From: an uncultured Gemmatimonadales bacterium
GTDB lineage: Bacteria > Gemmatimonadota > Gemmatimonadetes > Gemmatimonadales > GWC2-71-9
Reading direction: 5' to 3'
Assembly (NCBI GenBank): GCA_963739455.1
Contig: CAVUAK010000001.1
Location: 1,376,001-1,440,000 of the forward strand
Length of the DNA stretch: 64,000 nt
The position numbers were made by a program, and so were the translations under genes. Shown here one piece after another: positions 27,605 to 34,730 of the stretch (positions are counted from its first letter, which is position 1; every line of letters starts with the position of its first letter). Below the pieces are notes generated by a model, which had not been told where the DNA came from, did no database searches, and worked only from the letters and a program-made list of their open reading frames with translations.

Positions 27605-27657
27605 GGGCAGGGCGGGTAGGGCGGGTAGGGCGCTGGTAAGGCGGGTAGGGCGGGTGG
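27605..27657 (+). repeat. Nonamer array, GGCGGGTAG variant, with four exact GGGNAGGG
   Basis: GGGCAGGG at 27605; GGGTAGGG at 27614, 27623 and 27643. Confidence 0.93.
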
Positions 27658-27732: not shown

Positions 27733-28035
27733 ATGTCGAACGAGATTACGACGGTATCCAAGGGAGAGATCATGTCCACGACAGAGCAGGTCCACACCGA
27801 AGAGCACAAGGTGGCTGGCGATCGCCTGGTGGAGCGTATCAAGGAACTGGTACGCCAGGGAAATATTCGCCGAGTGATCGTGAAGAACGATGATGGGAAG
27901 TCGCTGATCGAGATTCCGCTCACGATCGGCGTGGTGGGCGCAGTGCTGCTGCCGGTGTGGGTGGCGCTTGGTGCCATTGCGGCACTGGCGGCGCAGTACA
28001 CGATCGAGGTGGAGAAGAGCGACGAAACAGCGTAA
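27733..28035 (+). CDS. DUF4342 domain protein (start 27733 or 27772)
   Basis: LVERIKELVRQGNIRRVIVK...EIPLTIGVVGA..P..ALGAIAAL. Confidence 0.87.
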   Translation: MSNEITTVSKGEIMSTTEQVHTEEHKVAGDRLVERIKELVRQGNIRRVIVKNDDGKSLIEIPLTIGVVGAVLLPVWVALGAIAALAAQYTIEVEKSDETA

Positions 28036-28147
28036 GGCGGCACAGCGACAGCGTAAGGAGGAACCGCGACTGCGGAAGTTCATCCCGCAGTTGTAGTTCC
28101 TCCTTACGTTTTTTCAGTTCCTCCTCACGCTCTTGCTCCTCCTCACG
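28027..28147. repeat. Palindromic cluster of 21-mer GGAGGAAC-family units between convergent genes
   Basis: Two direct units, an ACTGCGG..CCGCAGT core and three inverted units; both stop codons lie within units. Confidence 0.9.
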
Positions 28148-28673
28148 TTTTCCGCTTCACCACAACCTCGGTTGCGGCCGGGTCGATCTTGAGGCCGATC
28201 CACTCCCCGGCGATCGCGTGAGCGGGCACCCCACAGAGCACCCAGAACCACCCCCCGTCCTCGGCCTCGAACGAGGTGTCGTCAGTGCGCCCGACGGGCA
28301 GGCCGGGAAGCACGGCCCGGGTCATGGCATTGGTGAACACCGCCTGGCCACCCTGCTGGGGGAGCTTTTCGCGCTCCGCGACGACCACCAGGCTGTGGCT
28401 GGCGGTTGAGTCCTGGTTGATCCAGTGCCACTTGATGGTCCAGCCGCGGGGCACGATGACCTGGATGCCGCCGTCATGTTCCCCGCTGATGAGGGCGCTG
28501 GCAGCGCCTGCCGGGTGGGTGACGGTGAGATCAAGGAGCACGGTCTTCGCGGCCGGGTCGGGATGGACCCAGCTGGGCAGATCGGCGGCCTGGGCCGAGG
28601 CGGGCTGGGCGAGAGCGGTGACCAGGAAGGCCCCGAAAAGGCCGAATCGCATGCCGGACAAAACCTTAGACAT
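28143..28673 (-). CDS. Sulfocyanin-like cupredoxin with axial Met replaced by Glu
   Basis: Signal peptide; VPRGWTI..WINQD..SHSL; CGVPAHAIAGEW. Confidence 0.8.
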   Translation of the reverse strand: MSKVLSGMRFGLFGAFLVTALAQPASAQAADLPSWVHPDPAAKTVLLDLTVTHPAGAASALISGEHDGGIQVIVPRGWTIKWHWINQDSTASHSLVVVAEREKLPQQGGQAVFTNAMTRAVLPGLPVGRTDDTSFEAEDGGWFWVLCGVPAHAIAGEWIGLKIDPAATEVVVKRKT

Positions 28674-28847
28674 TGGGCTCCAGGGTAAGACGCATCTTGA
28701 CATGGGGCGTACTAACCGGAAATTTGATACACCTCAAAACCACCAAATTCAAATAAAGCAGGTCACCGGATCCGTTGGGGAGCGGGGCCGGGCGTGGGTT
28801 CGATCCGGACCGCGCGAACATCACCACATCACGGGAGCGCACCACAG

Positions 28848-30518
28848 ATGAACTTTCGTCGACTGAGTTGGTTGCCGGCGCTGTGCCTGATCACAGGCAC
28901 CGCGGCTGCGCAGAAGCCGACCGGAGATGACTGGACCACGTACGGCGGAAGCCAGTGGAACCAGCGTTATTCCGGCCTGAATGAGATCAACGCCAGTAAC
29001 GTCGCCCGGCTGGTGCCGCGCGGCATGCTGCAGACCGGCATCGCCAAGGTCGGGTCGTTCGAGAACACGCCGGTCATCGTCGGCAACCGGGCCTACGTCA
29101 CGACGCCGTTCAATACGGCGATCGCGTACGACCTGGACACCGGCAAGCAGCTCTGGCGCTATGAGCACAAGCTCGGCACCACGATCTACTGCTGCGGCCC
29201 GAACAATCGCGGAGTCGCCATCCACGGCCCGCACGTGTACATGGGAACCCTCGACGCCCGTCTTGTCGCACTGAATGCGACGACGGGCGAAGTTGTATGG
29301 GACAACGAGGTCGCCGACCCGACGTACGGGTACAGCATCACGCACGCGCCGCTGATCGTGGACAACACGGTCATCGTGGGCGTGTCCGGTGGTGAGTACG
29401 GCATCCGCGGCCACGTGACGGCGTATGACGCCGTGACCGGCAAGCAGGTGTGGCGCTGGTACTCCATCCCGGCCCCGAAGGGCGATCCGACGTTCGACGA
29501 CAAGGCGCCGAACGGCTGGTGGGGCACGTGGGAGCGCAGCACGCCGGATGGCGCGAGCCTGCACCGTGACATCGCGCAGGAAAAGGCCGACAGCGCGAAG
29601 AACGGCGATGCCTGGACGCGTGGCGGCGGCGGTGTCTGGATGACGCCGGCGTACGATCCCGAGACGCACACCATCTACGTCGCGGTGGGCAACCCGTCCC
29701 CCGACCTGTATGGCGCGATCCGTCCGGGCGACAACCTCTACACCGATGCCGTCGTGGCGATCGATGCCACCACCGGCAAGACGAAGTGGTTCTACCAGAC
29801 CGTTCCGCACGACGTGTGGGACCTCGACGCCGTCTCGCCGCCAGTCGTGGCGACGATCGGTGGCAAGAAGGTCGTAGTGCACGCGGGCAAGACCGGCTGG
29901 GTGTACGTGCTCGACGCCGCGACGGGCAAGCTGGTGCGCCGGTCGGATGCGTTCGTGCCGCAGGAGAACATGTTCGCGCTGCCGACCGGTGGCGAGGGCA
30001 CGCGCATGCTTCCGGGCGCGAACGGTGGTGCGGAGTGGTCGCCGATTTCCATCGACCCGACGCTGGGCTATGCCTACGTCGCAGCACTGCACCAGCCGAT
30101 GTGGTACCGCGCGAACTTCGCGCCGTGGGAGAAGGGCCGTCTCTGGCTGGGTTCCGCCTTCGTGGCGATCCCGACCGAGGAGCAGTACGGCCTGTTCTCG
30201 GCTGTTGACCTGGCCACCGGCAAGATCGCGTGGCAGAACAAGGTGCCGCAGCCGATGATGGGTGGCGCGCTGTCGACCGCTGGTGGCCTGACGTTCACCG
30301 GCGAGGGCAACGGCAACTTCAACGCGTACGAGTCGAAGACGGGCAAGCTGCTCTGGACGTTCAACGCGGGCGCCGGCTGCAACAGCGCCCCGATGAGCTT
30401 CAAGCGCAAGGGTGAGCAGATGATCGGCGTCGCGTGCGGCGGTAACTACCAGCTGAACTACCCGCTGGGCAGCACGATCCTCTTCTTCGGGCTTCCGAAG
30501 AACGTGGCGTCGAAGTAA
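28848..30518 (+). CDS. PQQ-dependent alcohol/methanol dehydrogenase family quinoprotein with no heme domain
   Basis: Signal peptide, QRYS.L.EIN..NV, vicinal CC (YCCG), GGEYGIRG, GNPSP, PHDVWDLD, Trp-docking repeats. Confidence 0.92.
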   Translation: MNFRRLSWLPALCLITGTAAAQKPTGDDWTTYGGSQWNQRYSGLNEINASNVARLVPRGMLQTGIAKVGSFENTPVIVGNRAYVTTPFNTAIAYDLDTGKQLWRYEHKLGTTIYCCGPNNRGVAIHGPHVYMGTLDARLVALNATTGEVVWDNEVADPTYGYSITHAPLIVDNTVIVGVSGGEYGIRGHVTAYDAVTGKQVWRWYSIPAPKGDPTFDDKAPNGWWGTWERSTPDGASLHRDIAQEKADSAKNGDAWTRGGGGVWMTPAYDPETHTIYVAVGNPSPDLYGAIRPGDNLYTDAVVAIDATTGKTKWFYQTVPHDVWDLDAVSPPVVATIGGKKVVVHAGKTGWVYVLDAATGKLVRRSDAFVPQENMFALPTGGEGTRMLPGANGGAEWSPISIDPTLGYAYVAALHQPMWYRANFAPWEKGRLWLGSAFVAIPTEEQYGLFSAVDLATGKIAWQNKVPQPMMGGALSTAGGLTFTGEGNGNFNAYESKTGKLLWTFNAGAGCNSAPMSFKRKGEQMIGVACGGNYQLNYPLGSTILFFGLPKNVASK

Positions 30519-30546
30519 CTATCGGCAAGTCGTTTGCACTGCTGAT

Positions 30547-30590
30547 GGGCGGGAGTGCCTCACGGGGTGCTCCCGCCCTTCAGTTTCTAC
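30547..30590 (+). terminator. GC-rich hairpin with T-rich tail after the dehydrogenase
   Basis: GGGCGGGAGTGCC...GGTGCTCCCGCCC-TTCAGTTTCT. Confidence 0.7.
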
Positions 30591-30611
30591 CGGCCATGAT
30601 GAGGATTCGCA

Positions 30612-31139
30612 ATGATTTACCGCTCGTTTGCCACGACTGCGCTGTTGTTCATCGGTGTCACCGGCATGGTCCACTGCCAGGGACAACCCGCCGCGCGGAA
30701 GCCGGATCCGACCTGGCTCAAGTGGAATGCTGATACCAAGACCGTCACGTTCCAGCTCATCGCTGGAGTACCGGCGGCGTCGAGTCCGTTCAACTTCAAC
30801 GGCTTCACCGACGGCAACCTGACGCTGGTGGTACCGGCGGGCGCCACCGTGGTGATGCCGTTCGTCAATGAAGACGGCGTGCCGCACAGCGCTGAAGTCA
30901 TCTCGGGTACGCTGCCGATCCCGAACATGGGTGGTGACGCCGCGATCCCGAGGGCGTATACGATCAACCTGCTCGAGGGACTTCCCCAGGGCGGGAAGGA
31001 CGTGATGCGCTTCACGGCCGCCCCGAACGCGACCTATCGCATCTTCTGCGGTGTGCCGGGCCACGGACTCTCGGGGATGTACATCGACATGAAGATCGAC
31101 CCGACCGCCAAGGAACCGTCGATGGTGGTCAAGAAATGA
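30612..31139 (+). CDS. Sulfocyanin (SoxE)-like type-1 copper protein
   Basis: FNFNG...LVVPAGATV..FVNED..PHS; CGVPGHGLSGM. Confidence 0.87.
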   Translation: MIYRSFATTALLFIGVTGMVHCQGQPAARKPDPTWLKWNADTKTVTFQLIAGVPAASSPFNFNGFTDGNLTLVVPAGATVVMPFVNEDGVPHSAEVISGTLPIPNMGGDAAIPRAYTINLLEGLPQGGKDVMRFTAAPNATYRIFCGVPGHGLSGMYIDMKIDPTAKEPSMVVKK

Positions 31140-31525
31140 AGGCGGGGAGGGCGGGGAGGGCGGGGATGTTCGGCGCGGTGGCCGGGTCCCTCCTGACGGC
31201 CGGGTTCATGAGCGCCTGGCAGGATCGGTCGTGGTTCGAGCTCGATGGAAGCGACTGGATCGCCATGGAGGCCCCGCAACGCATCGCGTGGACGCAGGGG
31301 TTCCTGGCGGGACGCGCGGTGGGGCAGGTGCCCGATTCAGTGGCTCGCGACACGATTGCCTTTGCGCGGGACCTGACGCGGCTCAAGCAGGATCGCGCGC
31401 TCGCCTTTCCGTATGCGGCTTCGCTGTATGTCTCCCGCATGGGGGACTACTACTACTGGGAAAACAATCGTCCGCATCCGCTGTGGTGGGGCATGCAGGA
31501 CGTGAATGGAGAGTTGAAGAGATGA
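31136..31525 (+). CDS. Hypothetical secreted protein
   Basis: ATGA overlap with the upstream gene; repeat-derived N-terminus MKAGRAGRAG then hydrophobic stretch. Confidence 0.7.
   Translation: MKAGRAGRAGMFGAVAGSLLTAGFMSAWQDRSWFELDGSDWIAMEAPQRIAWTQGFLAGRAVGQVPDSVARDTIAFARDLTRLKQDRALAFPYAASLYVSRMGDYYYWENNRPHPLWWGMQDVNGELKR
31139..31166 (+). repeat. Nonamer array x3 forming a signal-peptide n-region
   Basis: AAGGCGGGGAGGGCGGGGAGGGCGGGGA. Confidence 0.93.
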
Positions 31526-32028
31526 AAGACGTGAAGGCGGGGAGGGCGGGGAGGGCGGGGAGGTCGCTTGTTGCTGCGGTCGCGATGGTCGCGTTGGCTG
31601 CGCCACTGGTTGCGCAGACGGCGCCGACGAAGCCAACCACCCTGGCGTTCGACAGCGTGAACGCCGTCATCGCGGCGCTCATCCCGGCGAAGGACCGCGG
31701 CAACGTGCGGAGCATCAAGCTCTCGGCCGCGGGGAAGGAACTGCAGGTCGATGCCGATGTGCGGATGTCGGCGGTGCCGGGACTCGAGATGTTCGGGGCC
31801 ATGGGCTTCGCGCATGTGACCGGCGTGGGTCCGGTGAGCCTGATCAAGCCCGGTACGGTGGGTTGGCAGATCCGCTCGATCGAGGTGGCGGGTGCGCCGA
31901 TTTCGCAGTCGCTATGGGGGCCACTCCTGAGGAAGGGCACGAAGCGCACGGACAACGTGGTGCCGGTGCCGGTGGGTGCGTGGGTGAAGGGGGTGGAGGT
32001 GGTGCCGACGGGGTTGCGACTGTACTGA
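31522..32028 (+). CDS. Hypothetical secreted protein
   Basis: ATGA overlap; [32 protein letters not shown] signal peptide. Confidence 0.7.
   Translation: MKDVKAGRAGRAGRSLVAAVAMVALAAPLVAQTAPTKPTTLAFDSVNAVIAALIPAKDRGNVRSIKLSAAGKELQVDADVRMSAVPGLEMFGAMGFAHVTGVGPVSLIKPGTVGWQIRSIEVAGAPISQSLWGPLLRKGTKRTDNVVPVPVGAWVKGVEVVPTGLRLY
31528..31563 (+). repeat. One GACGTGAA octamer fused to (GGCGGGGAG)3 in a signal-peptide n-region
   Basis: Read directly. Confidence 0.9.
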
Positions 32029-32069: not shown

Positions 32070-32243
32070 GGCGTGATGAAGATCACTGCTGAAAGCTGCA
32101 CTATGTCAAAGAGCTGAAAGCAGTTGCACCACCCCGCACTACGCCTCGAATAGCACCGTTCTTGCCTCGTTGATGGGTCGAGTTTCCCAAGTCATCCAGT
32201 GACAGCGTCTTGGATAGAACCGACCCCGCATCACGAGGTCAGT

Positions 32244-34644
32244 ATGCAAACGTCCCGTGCGATCTGCGCTGCAGTTTCCGTTGTCAGTTTCTTGTCGCTC
32301 TCGTCATGTACCGCGGTGTCCGAACCGGACCCAGGTGACGGCGGGACGCCTCCACCAGTCGTGAACGCGAACTGGTCGGATCCGGCAACGTGGGGCGGTA
32401 CGGTGCCCGCTGCCGGCGCTGACGTCGTGATTCCGGCCGACAAGAACGTGCTCCTCGACATGGACACGCCGGCGCTTGGCAGCCTCACGATCAATGGCTC
32501 GCTCACGTTCTCCCCGGCAAAGGACCTGGCGCTCACGTCACGCTACGTGATCGTGCAGGGCACGCTGCAGATCGGCACCGAGTCGTCCAAGCGGACGAAG
32601 AAGGCGACGATCACGCTGACCGGCGACGGCAGCGGCGAGATCCAGGGCTTCGGCGACAAGATGATCGGTGTGCTTGCCGGTGGCCGTATCGAGCTGCATG
32701 GCGAGTCGCGGCTGGCCTGGACCAAGCTGGCGTCGACCGCTGCCGTGGGTGCGACGCAGATCACGCTGGCGCAGTCGCCCAACTGGCGCGTGGGCGACCG
32801 GATCGTGCTCGCCTCGACGGACTTCGATCCATTCCAGGCTGAAGAAGCGACGATCACTGCCAGGTCGAGCGGCTCGAGCGTGACGTTCGAGACGCCGCTG
32901 CGCTATGCGCACTGGGGCGTGATGCAGTCGGTCAGTGGTGTGTCGCTGGATGAGCGGGCGCGAGGTGGGCCTGCTGACGCGCAACATCACCATCCAGGGC
33001 GACAGCGCGTCGCTCACCACCGGCATTGGTGGTCACGTGATGGTGATGCAGGGCGCCACGGCGCACGTGGAGGGCGTGACCTTCACCCGCATGGGGCAGA
33101 AGGCGCGACTGGCGCGCTACCCGATGCACTGGCACATGGCCGGCGCGGTGGATGGCCAGTATTTCCGCAACAACTCGGTGTGGAAGAGCTTCAACCGCTG
33201 CCTGACGGTGCATGGCACCGACAACGTGGTGGCCGACGGCAACGTCTGCCATGACCACATCGGTCACGGCTTCTTCCTCGAGGATGGCGCCGAGTCGGGC
33301 AACACCTTCACCGGCAACCTGGTGATGACGACGCGCGCGCCGGCGACGGGCGAGGCGGTGCTGCCGTCGGATACCCGGCCGGCGAGCTACTGGATCACCA
33401 ACCCGGACAACACCTATCGCGGCAACGTGGCGGCAGGCTCGCGCGGCATCGGCTTCTGGTGCGCGTTCCCGGCGTCACCCACCGGTCTCTCGGTGGGCGC
33501 GGCAGACCTGCCGCGGCGGACGGCGCTGCGCGAGTTCAAGGACAACGTGGCGCACTCCAACCGTTCGGTCGGCCTGAACGTGGATGACGGCCCGACGATG
33601 GACGGCACCACCGAGGTGACCAACTACTCGCCGAGGACGGATCCGGCGACGGATTCGCCGGCGGTGATTGGCGACTTCACCGGGCTCAAGGCGTGGAAGA
33701 ACAGCGGCCGCGGTGTCTGGCTCCGCGGCAGCAACCTGCGCATCACCAACGGCGCTGCATGGCCGACAACGGCATCGGCGCCACGTTCGCGGCGAACGAG
33801 ACGTTCGTGCAGAACTCGACCTTCATCGGCGAGAGCGAGAACGTGGGCACCGCGGCGCTGGGCTTCTACCGCGGCTACGAGTTCTACGATGGGCGGGTGG
33901 GTGCCGACAACGTGAAGTTCATCAACTTCACCAAGATGGGCACGATCCCGTCGAGCGCGCTGGGCCAGAACCGGAACAACTCGTTCCCGATCAGCACCGG
34001 CAACTTTGCGCGGCAGCTGCAGTTCATCAACTCGAACGAGGTGTACTTCGAGGACCCGCATGCCGACCGCGACGGCGACAAGGCCGCCGCGTTCTACGAC
34101 TCGACGGGCTCGGTGTCGGGCACGACGGGCGCATTCGTGGTGGCCAACGTGCCGTTCATGGTGGATGGCACCTGCACGCTGCGCTCGGCCTGGAACTCCC
34201 AGGTCTGCACCGGGCGGCGGGTGAACCTGCGGATCAACAACAACGGCGCCGAGGCGGCGGGCCCGTTTACGCGTGACGCGCGATGACGGCGCGGCGATTA
34301 CGCTGGTGGGCGTGCCGAATACGCAGACGACAGGCACCACCACGGCGCTGCCGGGGCGGAGCTACGTGGTGTCGTGGGGCGGCGCGGTGCCGCCCAAGCC
34401 GCGGGTGTTCATCAACCGGACCCAGGTGGGCGAATGGGCCCGGGTGACGGTGCCGTACCCGACGGCGAGCATCCGGGTGATCCGGGACTATGACTCGGGG
34501 CATCCGCTGACGCAGGTGGGGAGCGTCGCCGAAGTGGATGCTGCAACCGATGCCGCGTGGTATTACGACGGAACGTCGGTGCACTTGAAGCTGATCACCA
34601 AGACCGGCAGGGATTACGCGGCGATGTTTATCGAACCACTCTAG
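32244..34644 (+). CDS. G8-domain / parallel beta-helix lipoprotein, TMEM2/CEMIP-like; frameshifts near 32958, 33757 and 34270
   Basis: WSDPATWGG.VP..G.DV.IP (G8); EVGLLTRNI, MGQ...ARYPMHWH, NRCLTVHGT, GHGFFLEDG.E, YWITNPDN, NVAAGS. Confidence 0.85.
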
Positions 34645-34670
34645 CGGCGAAGCCGCTCGAGCGGTTCTCA

Positions 34671-34696
34671 GGACGTGAGGACGTGAGGACGTGAGG
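34671..34696 (+). repeat. Octamer array (GACGTGAG)3
   Basis: Read directly; lies between two small hairpins. Confidence 0.93.
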
Positions 34697-34699
34697 GGG

Positions 34700-34730
34700 G
34701 GCGGGCCGAGAGGGTCCGCCTTCTTCATTT
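34700..34730 (+). terminator. Hairpin GGCGGGCC...GGTCCGCC with TTCTTCATTT tail
   Basis: Inverted repeat followed by T-rich run. Confidence 0.6.

Follow-up and report, generated by a model that had tools for sequence, protein, structure and literature searches.

A Gemmatimonadota PQQ dehydrogenase gene linked to SoxE-family cupredoxins, its candidate electron acceptors

To our knowledge, the acceptors of heme-less PQQ alcohol dehydrogenases are c-type cytochromes. PedH/ExaF is paired with cytochrome c550 PedF, and XoxF is accompanied by XoxJ and XoxG. Methylamine dehydrogenase, another quinoprotein, does reduce a cupredoxin (amicyanin) directly, but it carries TTQ instead of PQQ, has an unrelated fold and uses no lanthanide. 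XoxF is common in Gemmatimonadota (PMC10875860). The blue copper protein azurin is the natural acceptor of the type II quinohemoprotein alcohol dehydrogenase (EC 1.1.9.1) (PMC8348568). In the literature, the only mention that we found of direct transfer from PQQ to copper is a hypothesis on marine archaea: an excerpt of PMC7300363 proposes PQQ dehydrogenases as possible feeders of blue copper proteins in heterotrophic marine Thaumarchaeota. The proposal, as that excerpt gives it, concerns archaea without cytochrome c and includes neither gene linkage nor Cys-Cys enzymes nor a test.

Here we describe a locus in a 64-kb window, that is, the whole stretch of DNA analysed. All five ORFs of a first-pass annotation were found at this locus, which has the following features:

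28143..28673, minus strand: cupredoxin A, SoxE family, with a signal-peptide-like N-terminus (Pfam SoxE, 4e-12)
28848..30518, plus strand: almost certainly a PQQ dehydrogenase, heme-less and eight-bladed, 556 aa, with a signal-peptide-like N-terminus (TIGR03075, PDB alignment)
30547..30578, plus strand: terminator-like 14-bp hairpin in the gap between the enzyme and cupredoxin B (hairpin scan)
30612..31139, plus strand: cupredoxin B, SoxE family (Pfam SoxE, 3e-20)
31136..31525, plus strand: small helical protein, secreted-type, no known family (gene linkage, AF2)
31522..32028, plus strand: beta-rich unknown protein, secreted-type (no family match)

The first-pass annotation placed sulfocyanin-like cupredoxins on both sides of the enzyme. 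The flanking arrangement holds, with the cupredoxin A gene lying head-to-head with the enzyme gene on the opposite strand (a correction to the earlier reading), but the sulfocyanin identity does not. Both proteins pass the Pfam SoxE cut-off (PF06525; 46 bits for A and 73 bits for B against 21), and by the gathering cut-off and the cupredoxin fold they belong to the SoxE domain family; both fall below the sulfocyanin equivalog TIGR03094 (37.5 and 57.5, respectively, against 168.4). The absence of a nearby cytochrome c extends to the whole window, where a single ORF, Arg-rich (23% Arg) and opposite a real gene, contains a CxxCH match, and the enzyme itself has no CxxCH. The terminator-like hairpin is a further correction to the earlier reading; it parts the enzyme gene from the cupredoxin B gene and as such speaks against the explanation that we favour below. 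The scan gave one such hairpin against 2.1 +/- 1.5 in shuffles, a count not above chance. A search for a sigma-70-like promoter found none. In three metatranscriptome runs, short contigs of relatives, with small shares, lie over the enzyme, and in one of these runs such contigs also cover the two cupredoxins and the helical gene, too little to establish transcription or operon structure.

The enzyme is a member of the eight-bladed PQQ alcohol dehydrogenase superfamily (PF01011, 286 bits). Its best PDB match and best solved relative is PedH (6zcv; E 3e-82), and its PQQ and metal residues were aligned to 6zcv and 1flg. The 6zcv alignment bears out the motifs first read for a secreted quinoprotein: C115-C116, E183 in GGEYG, N282 in GNPSP, and D325 and D327 in WDLD. 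E72, C115-C116, R121, E183, W264, N282, D325-x-D327, K348 and E396 are invariant in 76/76 aligned rows, and WDLD and CC occur in all 78 ORFs listed from 80 loci, two partial or frameshifted ORFs being excluded. Some loci seemed to have lost D-x-D (WDIE, WDVE), but this was a regex artefact; the alignment retains the motif. The enzyme scores below the cut-offs for the methanol/ethanol family (TIGR03075; 449 against 480 bits) and for membrane glucose dehydrogenases (TIGR03074; 226 against 833 bits). At 556 aa, with neither CxxCH nor a C-terminal heme c domain, it does not belong to the type II quinohemoprotein alcohol dehydrogenases. Phylogeny against the XoxF and PedH/ExaF clades, which the first-pass annotation had called for, went against membership in either. 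The enzyme lies outside the XoxF/MxaF clade (AU p 2.4e-5), and neither xoxG nor xoxJ is beside its gene. It also lies outside the PedH/ExaA clade (type 2b; AU p 1.3e-84), for which the references were three plasmid-borne proteins named from annotation and neighbours, not characterised enzymes. The clade may already have a type number among the Keltjens PQQ-ADH types 1-11.

The enzyme has the lanthanide-type arrangement of a second Asp (D325-L-D327) with the Glu and Asn ligands, and its D-x-D motif makes lanthanide dependence likely. The caveat that D-x-D occurs beyond lanthanide enzymes was well founded, as E. coli Gcd carries D-M-D. Furthermore, Lys348 and Glu396 are common to our enzyme and Gcd, the corresponding residues of XoxF and PedH being Arg and Asp/Asn, and D-x-D needs verification where the enzyme is unknown (PMC11996626). 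The enzyme might therefore use Ca2+ or Mg2+, or be indifferent to the metal, with D-x-D inherited and not diagnostic and with copper wiring as proposed. We consider this unlikely because the full Glu/Asn/Asp/Asp set is as in PedH and invariant in 76/76 rows, whereas Gcd lacks Glu and Asn at the corresponding columns, and because a Ser-to-Asp change is what distinguishes PedE from PedH (PMC5487730).

The linkage on which the first-pass proposal depended is conserved. A SoxE-like cupredoxin lies within 5 kb of the enzyme in 76 of 80 Gemmatimonadota loci (Glu type only in 34, Met type only in 30, both in 12, none in 4), and a CxxCH ORF lies within 1.5 kb in 2/80. We also surveyed an even sample of 201 Gemmatimonadota genomes, calling the enzyme at >=60% identity; kin in this sample are not independent. 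The enzyme is present in 44 genomes and has an adjacent cupredoxin in 36 of them, leaving eight with none beside it. Every carrier has a non-Glu SoxE protein somewhere in the genome (44/44), against any SoxE in 31/157 others; one of these 31 genomes, which have SoxE but no 60% match, holds a partial enzyme copy at a contig end. The sole adjacent cupredoxin is the Glu type in 15/44 genomes and the Met type in 10/44. In the 15 Glu-only genomes cupredoxin B is encoded elsewhere; in the three that were inspected, its neighbour is a uvrA-like gene. Porin and MFS transporter genes adjoin the enzyme in many relatives.

The enzyme could instead reduce a membrane quinone, as glucose or sorbose dehydrogenases do, and need no protein acceptor. 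Although Lys348 and Glu396 are common to it and Gcd, and a carrier gene is absent from a few loci, we regard this as very improbable: the enzyme lacks a membrane domain, retains the Cys-Cys ring and falls far short of TIGR03074, and the cupredoxin at 76/80 loci argues against a quinone acceptor.

Sister enzymes point to the kind of carrier that the cupredoxins may replace. A c-type cytochrome is encoded directly downstream in three of four proteobacterial sister loci and, by Pfam, directly downstream of two Gemmatimonadota paralogues of 52-53% identity. Because copper-type proteins take the place that a cytochrome has in its closest relatives, the enzyme likely passes its electrons via copper. 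In nature the two domains are also found fused. PQQ-SoxE(Met) fusions rank second and third among 150 representatives, P0205 is a third such fusion, and four further fusion clusters were found; the axial residue is Met in all of them and never Glu. PQQ-plastocyanin-type fusions are present as well (P0153, Chloroflexota). The PQQ-SoxE fusions are more distant relatives than the cytochrome-linked sisters; a single clade of fusions and the focal group is rejected (AU p 0.047), and the placement of the fusions differs between two trees. They surfaced only through the search of representatives: the 19 longer relatives retrieved with cupredoxin B alone include SoxE-catalase and SoxE-TonB forms and no PQQ fusion. 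Thus, conserved linkage, a sister cytochrome in the same position and natural fusions support, from genes alone, the copper-for-cytochrome wiring first suggested, and a cupredoxin is probably the acceptor of the enzyme.

The real acceptor might still be, as in PedH/ExaA and XoxF, a c-type cytochrome, here with its gene at another locus, and the cupredoxins would be co-regulated and act further downstream. The host has a xoxF-J-G-like operon of its own, 54 CxxCH ORFs by a crude filter and five other plastocyanin-family matches, and CxxCH or plastocyanin-family proteins could serve the enzyme in trans. In sister enzymes the linkage is to cytochrome c, an adjacent cupredoxin is missing in 8/44 genomes, and the Cys-Cys ring, which the title of a cited work ties to electron transfer to cytochrome c550, is kept. 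The c-type cytochrome genes that adjoin two other PQQ dehydrogenases of the host bear on both sides: they show what its other PQQ enzymes have as neighbours, but the same host keeps no cytochrome beside this one, and only 2/80 loci have one near the gene. As the PQQ-cupredoxin fusions also join both domains without a heme domain, we find a cytochrome acceptor quite unlikely.

The two cupredoxins differ in their predicted sites. Cupredoxin B has the canonical type 1 set H92, C146, H151 and M156 by alignment with rusticyanin, and this type 1 blue copper signature is invariant (43/43 rows). Met-type SoxE is a common Gemmatimonadota protein that also occurs without the enzyme, and 62 of 85 non-Glu SoxE matches in the genome sample lie away from it. 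The predicted ligands of cupredoxin A are H93, C147, H152 and E157, with Glu at the axial Met/Gln position; the C-terminal motif is C-x4-H-x4-E, not M, where the earlier reading had missed the axial Glu. This Glu, in the alignment column of the axial Gln of mavicyanin, is found in 39/39 aligned rows and sets cupredoxin A outside the type 1 definition by axial Met (or Gln). Its AF2 model (pLDDT 81) has a cupredoxin fold with rusticyanin as the best match. Cupredoxin A is dedicated to the enzyme: the enzyme is present in 23/23 metagenome loci of the Glu type with at least 3 kb upstream, and within 5 kb in 26 of the 29 genomes with this type, all of one family. We rejected cupredoxin A as the partner of a neighbouring MFS transporter on gene locations, since in the host it adjoins the enzyme and the MFS and porin genes lie together ~375 kb away.

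It is possible, if rather unlikely, that cupredoxin B is the sole acceptor and that A serves the enzyme in some other way, by binding or delivering zinc, iron or copper, by sensing, or as a small catalytic site of the red-copper kind. Every SoxE fusion has Met. Cupredoxin A is also dispensable, because the Met type alone is adjacent in 10/44 genomes and the Glu type occurs in just 29/201. Its metal site may be something other than a redox copper centre, because nitrite reductase with an engineered Met-to-Glu type 1 site (M150E) holds zinc, going by the title of PDB 1ntd. Met121Glu renders Fe-azurin redox-active, according to an excerpt of PMC12071310. On the other hand, cupredoxin A retains His, Cys and His at type 1 spacing within a predicted cupredoxin fold, and it is the sole adjacent cupredoxin in the 15 genomes that encode B elsewhere. 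Complex prediction for the enzyme with cupredoxin A gave 0.17, 0.51 and 0.27, with the median below the 0.32 mark, and weighs neither for nor against an interaction.

Two translationally coupled secreted proteins had been read downstream. Both ATGA stop/start overlaps are present, but only the first protein is part of the conserved module. The small helical protein is a conserved module member, found in 52/80 loci and in 28 genomes, all with the enzyme; the beta-rich protein (7/80 loci), which has no Pfam or NCBIfam match, is lineage-restricted and probably outside the core, and on that count we rejected the idea that the two genes are both core. AF2 predicts an all-helical structure for the small protein (pLDDT 91). 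It has no PDB sequence match and nothing in Foldseek at E <= 0.001; HdeA (E 1.5) is not significant, and an Atlas Rap1a row (0.82) is a lead only.

The genes, motifs, linkage, tree position and fusions are observed here; what we infer, in the model that follows, is the metal, the substrate, whether the cupredoxins are loaded with copper, and which way and in what order electrons flow. On balance we favour a periplasmic, likely lanthanide-dependent PQQ dehydrogenase that feeds SoxE copper proteins, with the Glu type as the likely first acceptor. The enzyme, likely periplasmic, would oxidise a small alcohol or aldehyde, and the SoxE-family proteins would take electrons in place of the cytochrome c encoded beside sister enzymes. 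Single electrons would pass from PQQH2 to the Glu-ligand cupredoxin A, of predicted low potential, and from A, or directly from the enzyme in lineages without A, to the Met-ligand cupredoxin B. Cupredoxin B, as a general periplasmic carrier, would feed a heme-copper oxidase. In favour of this model, the host has pqqBCDE-like genes and two COX1 genes, and Met121Glu lowers the azurin potential to 184 mV, according to an excerpt of PMC12071310. The relay from A to B is a tentative part of this model. Equally speculative is its widest form, in which a natural His2-Cys-Glu cupredoxin is the dedicated low-potential acceptor of a lanthanide PQQ enzyme in a heme-free PQQ -> Cu(Glu) -> Cu(Met) -> oxidase chain across a widespread Gemmatimonadota group. 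The small helical protein is likely an assembly or chaperone factor, and the porin and MFS transporter of relatives would bring in substrate and take up the acid product.

Compared with PedH/ExaF (6zcv), the enzyme is likewise heme-less and eight-bladed, with Cys-Cys and a Glu/Asn/Asp/Asp site. However, it is only ~35-38% identical to the PedH/ExaA-like plasmid proteins and forms a separate clade, near PQQ it has Lys in place of Arg and Glu in place of Asn, and its neighbour is a cupredoxin, with no pedF and no substrate-binding (xoxJ-like) gene. It shares D-x-D with XoxF but again falls in a separate clade, at a locus without xoxG or xoxJ. The group is a new clade in which D-x-D can be tried as a lanthanide predictor outside XoxF and PedH. 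Type II enzymes also have Lys at the 348 column, but use a fused heme c as first relay and carry D-x-T, whereas our enzyme has no heme and carries D-x-D. Because it has no heme, electrons would go straight from PQQ to copper. This question is directly testable because the module, present in 44/201 sampled genomes, is compact and soluble, with natural fusions and cytochrome-linked sisters as controls.

The His2-Cys-Glu set predicted for cupredoxin A also occurs in nitrosocyanin and in two mutants, azurin Met121Glu and nitrite reductase M150E; in print we found axial Glu at such sites only in engineered mutants. The Glu of nitrosocyanin stands in for an equatorial His (PMC10804444) and is not a C-terminal axial ligand, unlike in cupredoxin A. 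If the prediction is right, cupredoxin A would be what Met121Glu azurin is by design, but of natural origin, and interesting with any of copper, zinc or iron bound.

The five open reading frames and the motifs named in the first-pass annotation are all present in the sequence. The features that concern us are the following.

28848-30518, + strand: the enzyme, a heme-less PQQ dehydrogenase of 556 aa
28143-28673, - strand: cupredoxin A, upstream, with an axial Glu
30612-31139, + strand: cupredoxin B, downstream, with an axial Met
31136-31525, + strand: the helical gene, for a small secreted-type protein
31522-32028, + strand: the last unknown gene
28026-28147: an imperfect palindromic repeat of about 110-120 bases, just beyond the end of A
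27606-27657, 31140-31165 and 31536-31563: tandem G-rich 9-base repeats
32199-34730: a G8 and CEMIP beta-helix protein, broken up by frameshifts in the assembly

The enzyme is an eight-bladed protein whose best solved relative is PedH. It contains C115-C116, E183, N282 and D325-L-D327, lacks a heme motif, and scores slightly below the methanol/ethanol family cut-off. As had been claimed, no cytochrome lies near it: we found no credible CxxCH gene within the 64-kb window. The flanking proteins had been called sulfocyanin-like. Pfam places both in the SoxE family, but both fall far under the sulfocyanin equivalog score.

The linkage of enzyme and cupredoxin is conserved, a point that the first-pass annotation had left to be checked. 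Among the best 80 of 234 confirmed loci of enzyme relatives, 76 have a SoxE-like gene within 5 kb, and a plausible CxxCH ORF lies within 1.5 kb in two. The same 80 loci include the helical gene (52), a porin-like gene (46; porin is our reading, without a Pfam match), an MFS transporter (34) and the last unknown gene (7). A frequent order in relatives is A, MFS, enzyme, helical gene, porin. The taxon titles of the 80 nearest named loci give Gemmatimonadota or one of its subgroups in 79 cases and Gemmataceae in one. We also sampled 201 genomes spread evenly across the phylum, which gave 45 enzyme matches at E <= 1e-130; the 44 with a copy of at least 60% identity were counted as enzyme-bearing and weaker paralogues were excluded. 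A cupredoxin lies within 5 kb of the enzyme in 36 of the 44, and the other eight have none adjacent. A non-Glu SoxE gene occurs somewhere in all 44, compared with any SoxE gene in 31 of the 157 others, although these counts are descriptions rather than statistics because related genomes are not independent. On comparative evidence, the enzyme-cupredoxin locus is a real, conserved module.

Trees of 180 propeller domains (FastTree) and 32 (IQ-TREE quick) both placed the Gemmatimonadota enzymes in one group (support 92-93), with proteobacterial enzymes as sister (support 96 and 91). The group stands apart from XoxF, PedH/ExaA-like and quinohemoprotein references, which are plasmid-borne genes named by annotation and neighbours rather than characterised enzymes. 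Placement with XoxF/ExaF/PedH, raised earlier, was rejected by the AU test (PedH/ExaA, p 1e-84; XoxF, p 2e-5). A c-type cytochrome gene lies directly downstream of the sister enzyme in Ideonella, Alloyangia and Paraburkholderia caribensis, and none was found in that position in P. sprentiae. Thus, this gene slot is occupied by a cytochrome in one of the two branches and by a cupredoxin in its sister. A paralogous PQQ protein (G000:C1:913197-914933; loci L002 and L005) is 45% identical, and its metal ligands are altered, with Gln in place of Glu and G-Y-D in place of D-x-D; it belongs to a sister group with degenerate sites.

The host genome carries pqqB, C, D and E-like genes and two COX1 loci. 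Frameshifts split pqqE as well as one porin gene and one COX1 gene, a pattern suggestive of assembly errors. As the host also has an xoxF-xoxJ-xoxG-like operon, and a second methanol-dehydrogenase-like gene is accompanied by a cytochrome, it can use cytochromes for PQQ enzymes. Unlike these, the focal enzyme has no cytochrome gene beside it.

The two cupredoxins differ at the axial position. B ends in C-x4-H-x4-M, a normal type 1 site, whereas A ends in C-x4-H-x4-E. This Glu occurs in every one of the 39 aligned rows, which were best matches to A with M or E permitted (38 of 40 candidates used), so that Cys and His are present by selection but Glu is not. It aligns with the Gln that closes the same loop in mavicyanin, which we take to be the axial ligand there. 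A is predicted to adopt a rusticyanin-like fold. B-type proteins are scattered (in the 201 genomes, 23 of 85 non-Glu matches lie near the enzyme), and Met was present in all 30 of the best SoxE loci read. The A-type gene occurs as a single copy in 29 of the 201 genomes, which all belong to one family; it lies within 5 kb of the enzyme in 26, and in the remaining three, all fragmented assemblies, the two are on different contigs.

A reverse metagenome search with A, in which one pattern required Glu, retained the best 80 of 284 loci, including some near duplicates. The 23 loci that extend 3 kb or more upstream all have the enzyme in head-to-head orientation, either next to A or with an MFS gene in between. 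Of those with less than 3 kb, 13 show the enzyme, 37 reach the contig end after the MFS gene alone, and seven have less than 250 bases. A could instead be a partner of the transporter, but we ruled this out: in the host, MFS and porin are together at another place on the contig and keep the same flanking genes, whereas A remains beside the enzyme. Thus, A follows the enzyme and not the transporter.

Other copper proteins were seen in passing. At L049:6697-7799, L053, L079 and L139, the enzyme has two further neighbours, a small TTHB210-like protein and a plastocyanin-family cupredoxin of the Tat type; the latter is a third type of copper protein in the module. In Deinococcus sp. NW-56 (L094:4340-6402), a sulfocyanin-like gene lies directly 3' of nirK, which is consistent with sulfocyanin-like proteins being general carriers. 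Several clusters (P0131-P0139, P0143) are catalase-domain (PF00199) proteins of about 500 aa fused to a Met-type SoxE cupredoxin.

Fused cupredoxin domains also occur on PQQ proteins. Among the best 150 representatives at 50% identity (20 scanned with Pfam, all 150 with our own profiles), P0146, P0147 and P0205 have a C-terminal SoxE domain with Met, P0153 and P0194 have other cupredoxin domains, and many others have CxxCH domains; a search with the fused domain added four PQQ-SoxE clusters. The acceptor domain can thus be exchanged within the wider group. The fusions share 46-48% identity with the enzyme but lie outside its clade (AU p 0.047), which makes them an analogy and not direct proof.

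The window also contains repeats and a split gene. The palindromic repeat has 47 blastn matches in the genome, on both strands, occurs in same-genus genomes, and resembles a REP- or MITE-type element. Arrays of a closely related G-rich 9-base unit number 51 in the genome. Two of those in the window fall in the first codons of the unknown genes, one in each, and read AGRAGRAG, a run absent at the first junction from the six relatives shown. The G8 and CEMIP protein is a long intact ORF in relatives (L013).

We propose that the enzyme probably uses Ln-PQQ in the periplasm to oxidise a small alcohol or aldehyde, and that its electrons likely pass to copper. A would be the first acceptor for PQQH2 and B a higher-potential carrier to the oxidase. 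By analogy, the axial Glu may suit A to this role because a polar Glu lowers the potential of azurin (Met121Glu, 184 mV versus 310 mV; PMC12071310). Several points stand against this route: many loci lack A, the fusions use Met, a hairpin lies between the enzyme and B, and the eight enzyme-bearing genomes mentioned have no adjacent cupredoxin. In addition, an engineered Met-to-Glu site can hold zinc, and A might do likewise.

Neither a PQQ dehydrogenase with a linked SoxE-type protein nor a naturally occurring cupredoxin with an axial Glu was found described in full-text literature mainly outside subscription journals, represented mostly by titles and the starts of abstracts, or in passages of PMC6315138, PMC11996626, PMC10875860, PMC7300363, PMC10804444, PMC12071310, PMC8348568, PMC8915257, PMC5487730 and bioRxiv 10.64898/2026.07.10.737718. 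The enzyme clade may already be included in the supplements of PMC11996626 or the bioRxiv study. In the accessible part of the latter, the partners described are cytochromes. What appears to be new here is a quinoprotein with a cupredoxin as its carrier gene in place of a cytochrome, in a module that also includes a dedicated cupredoxin whose ligand set is unusual.
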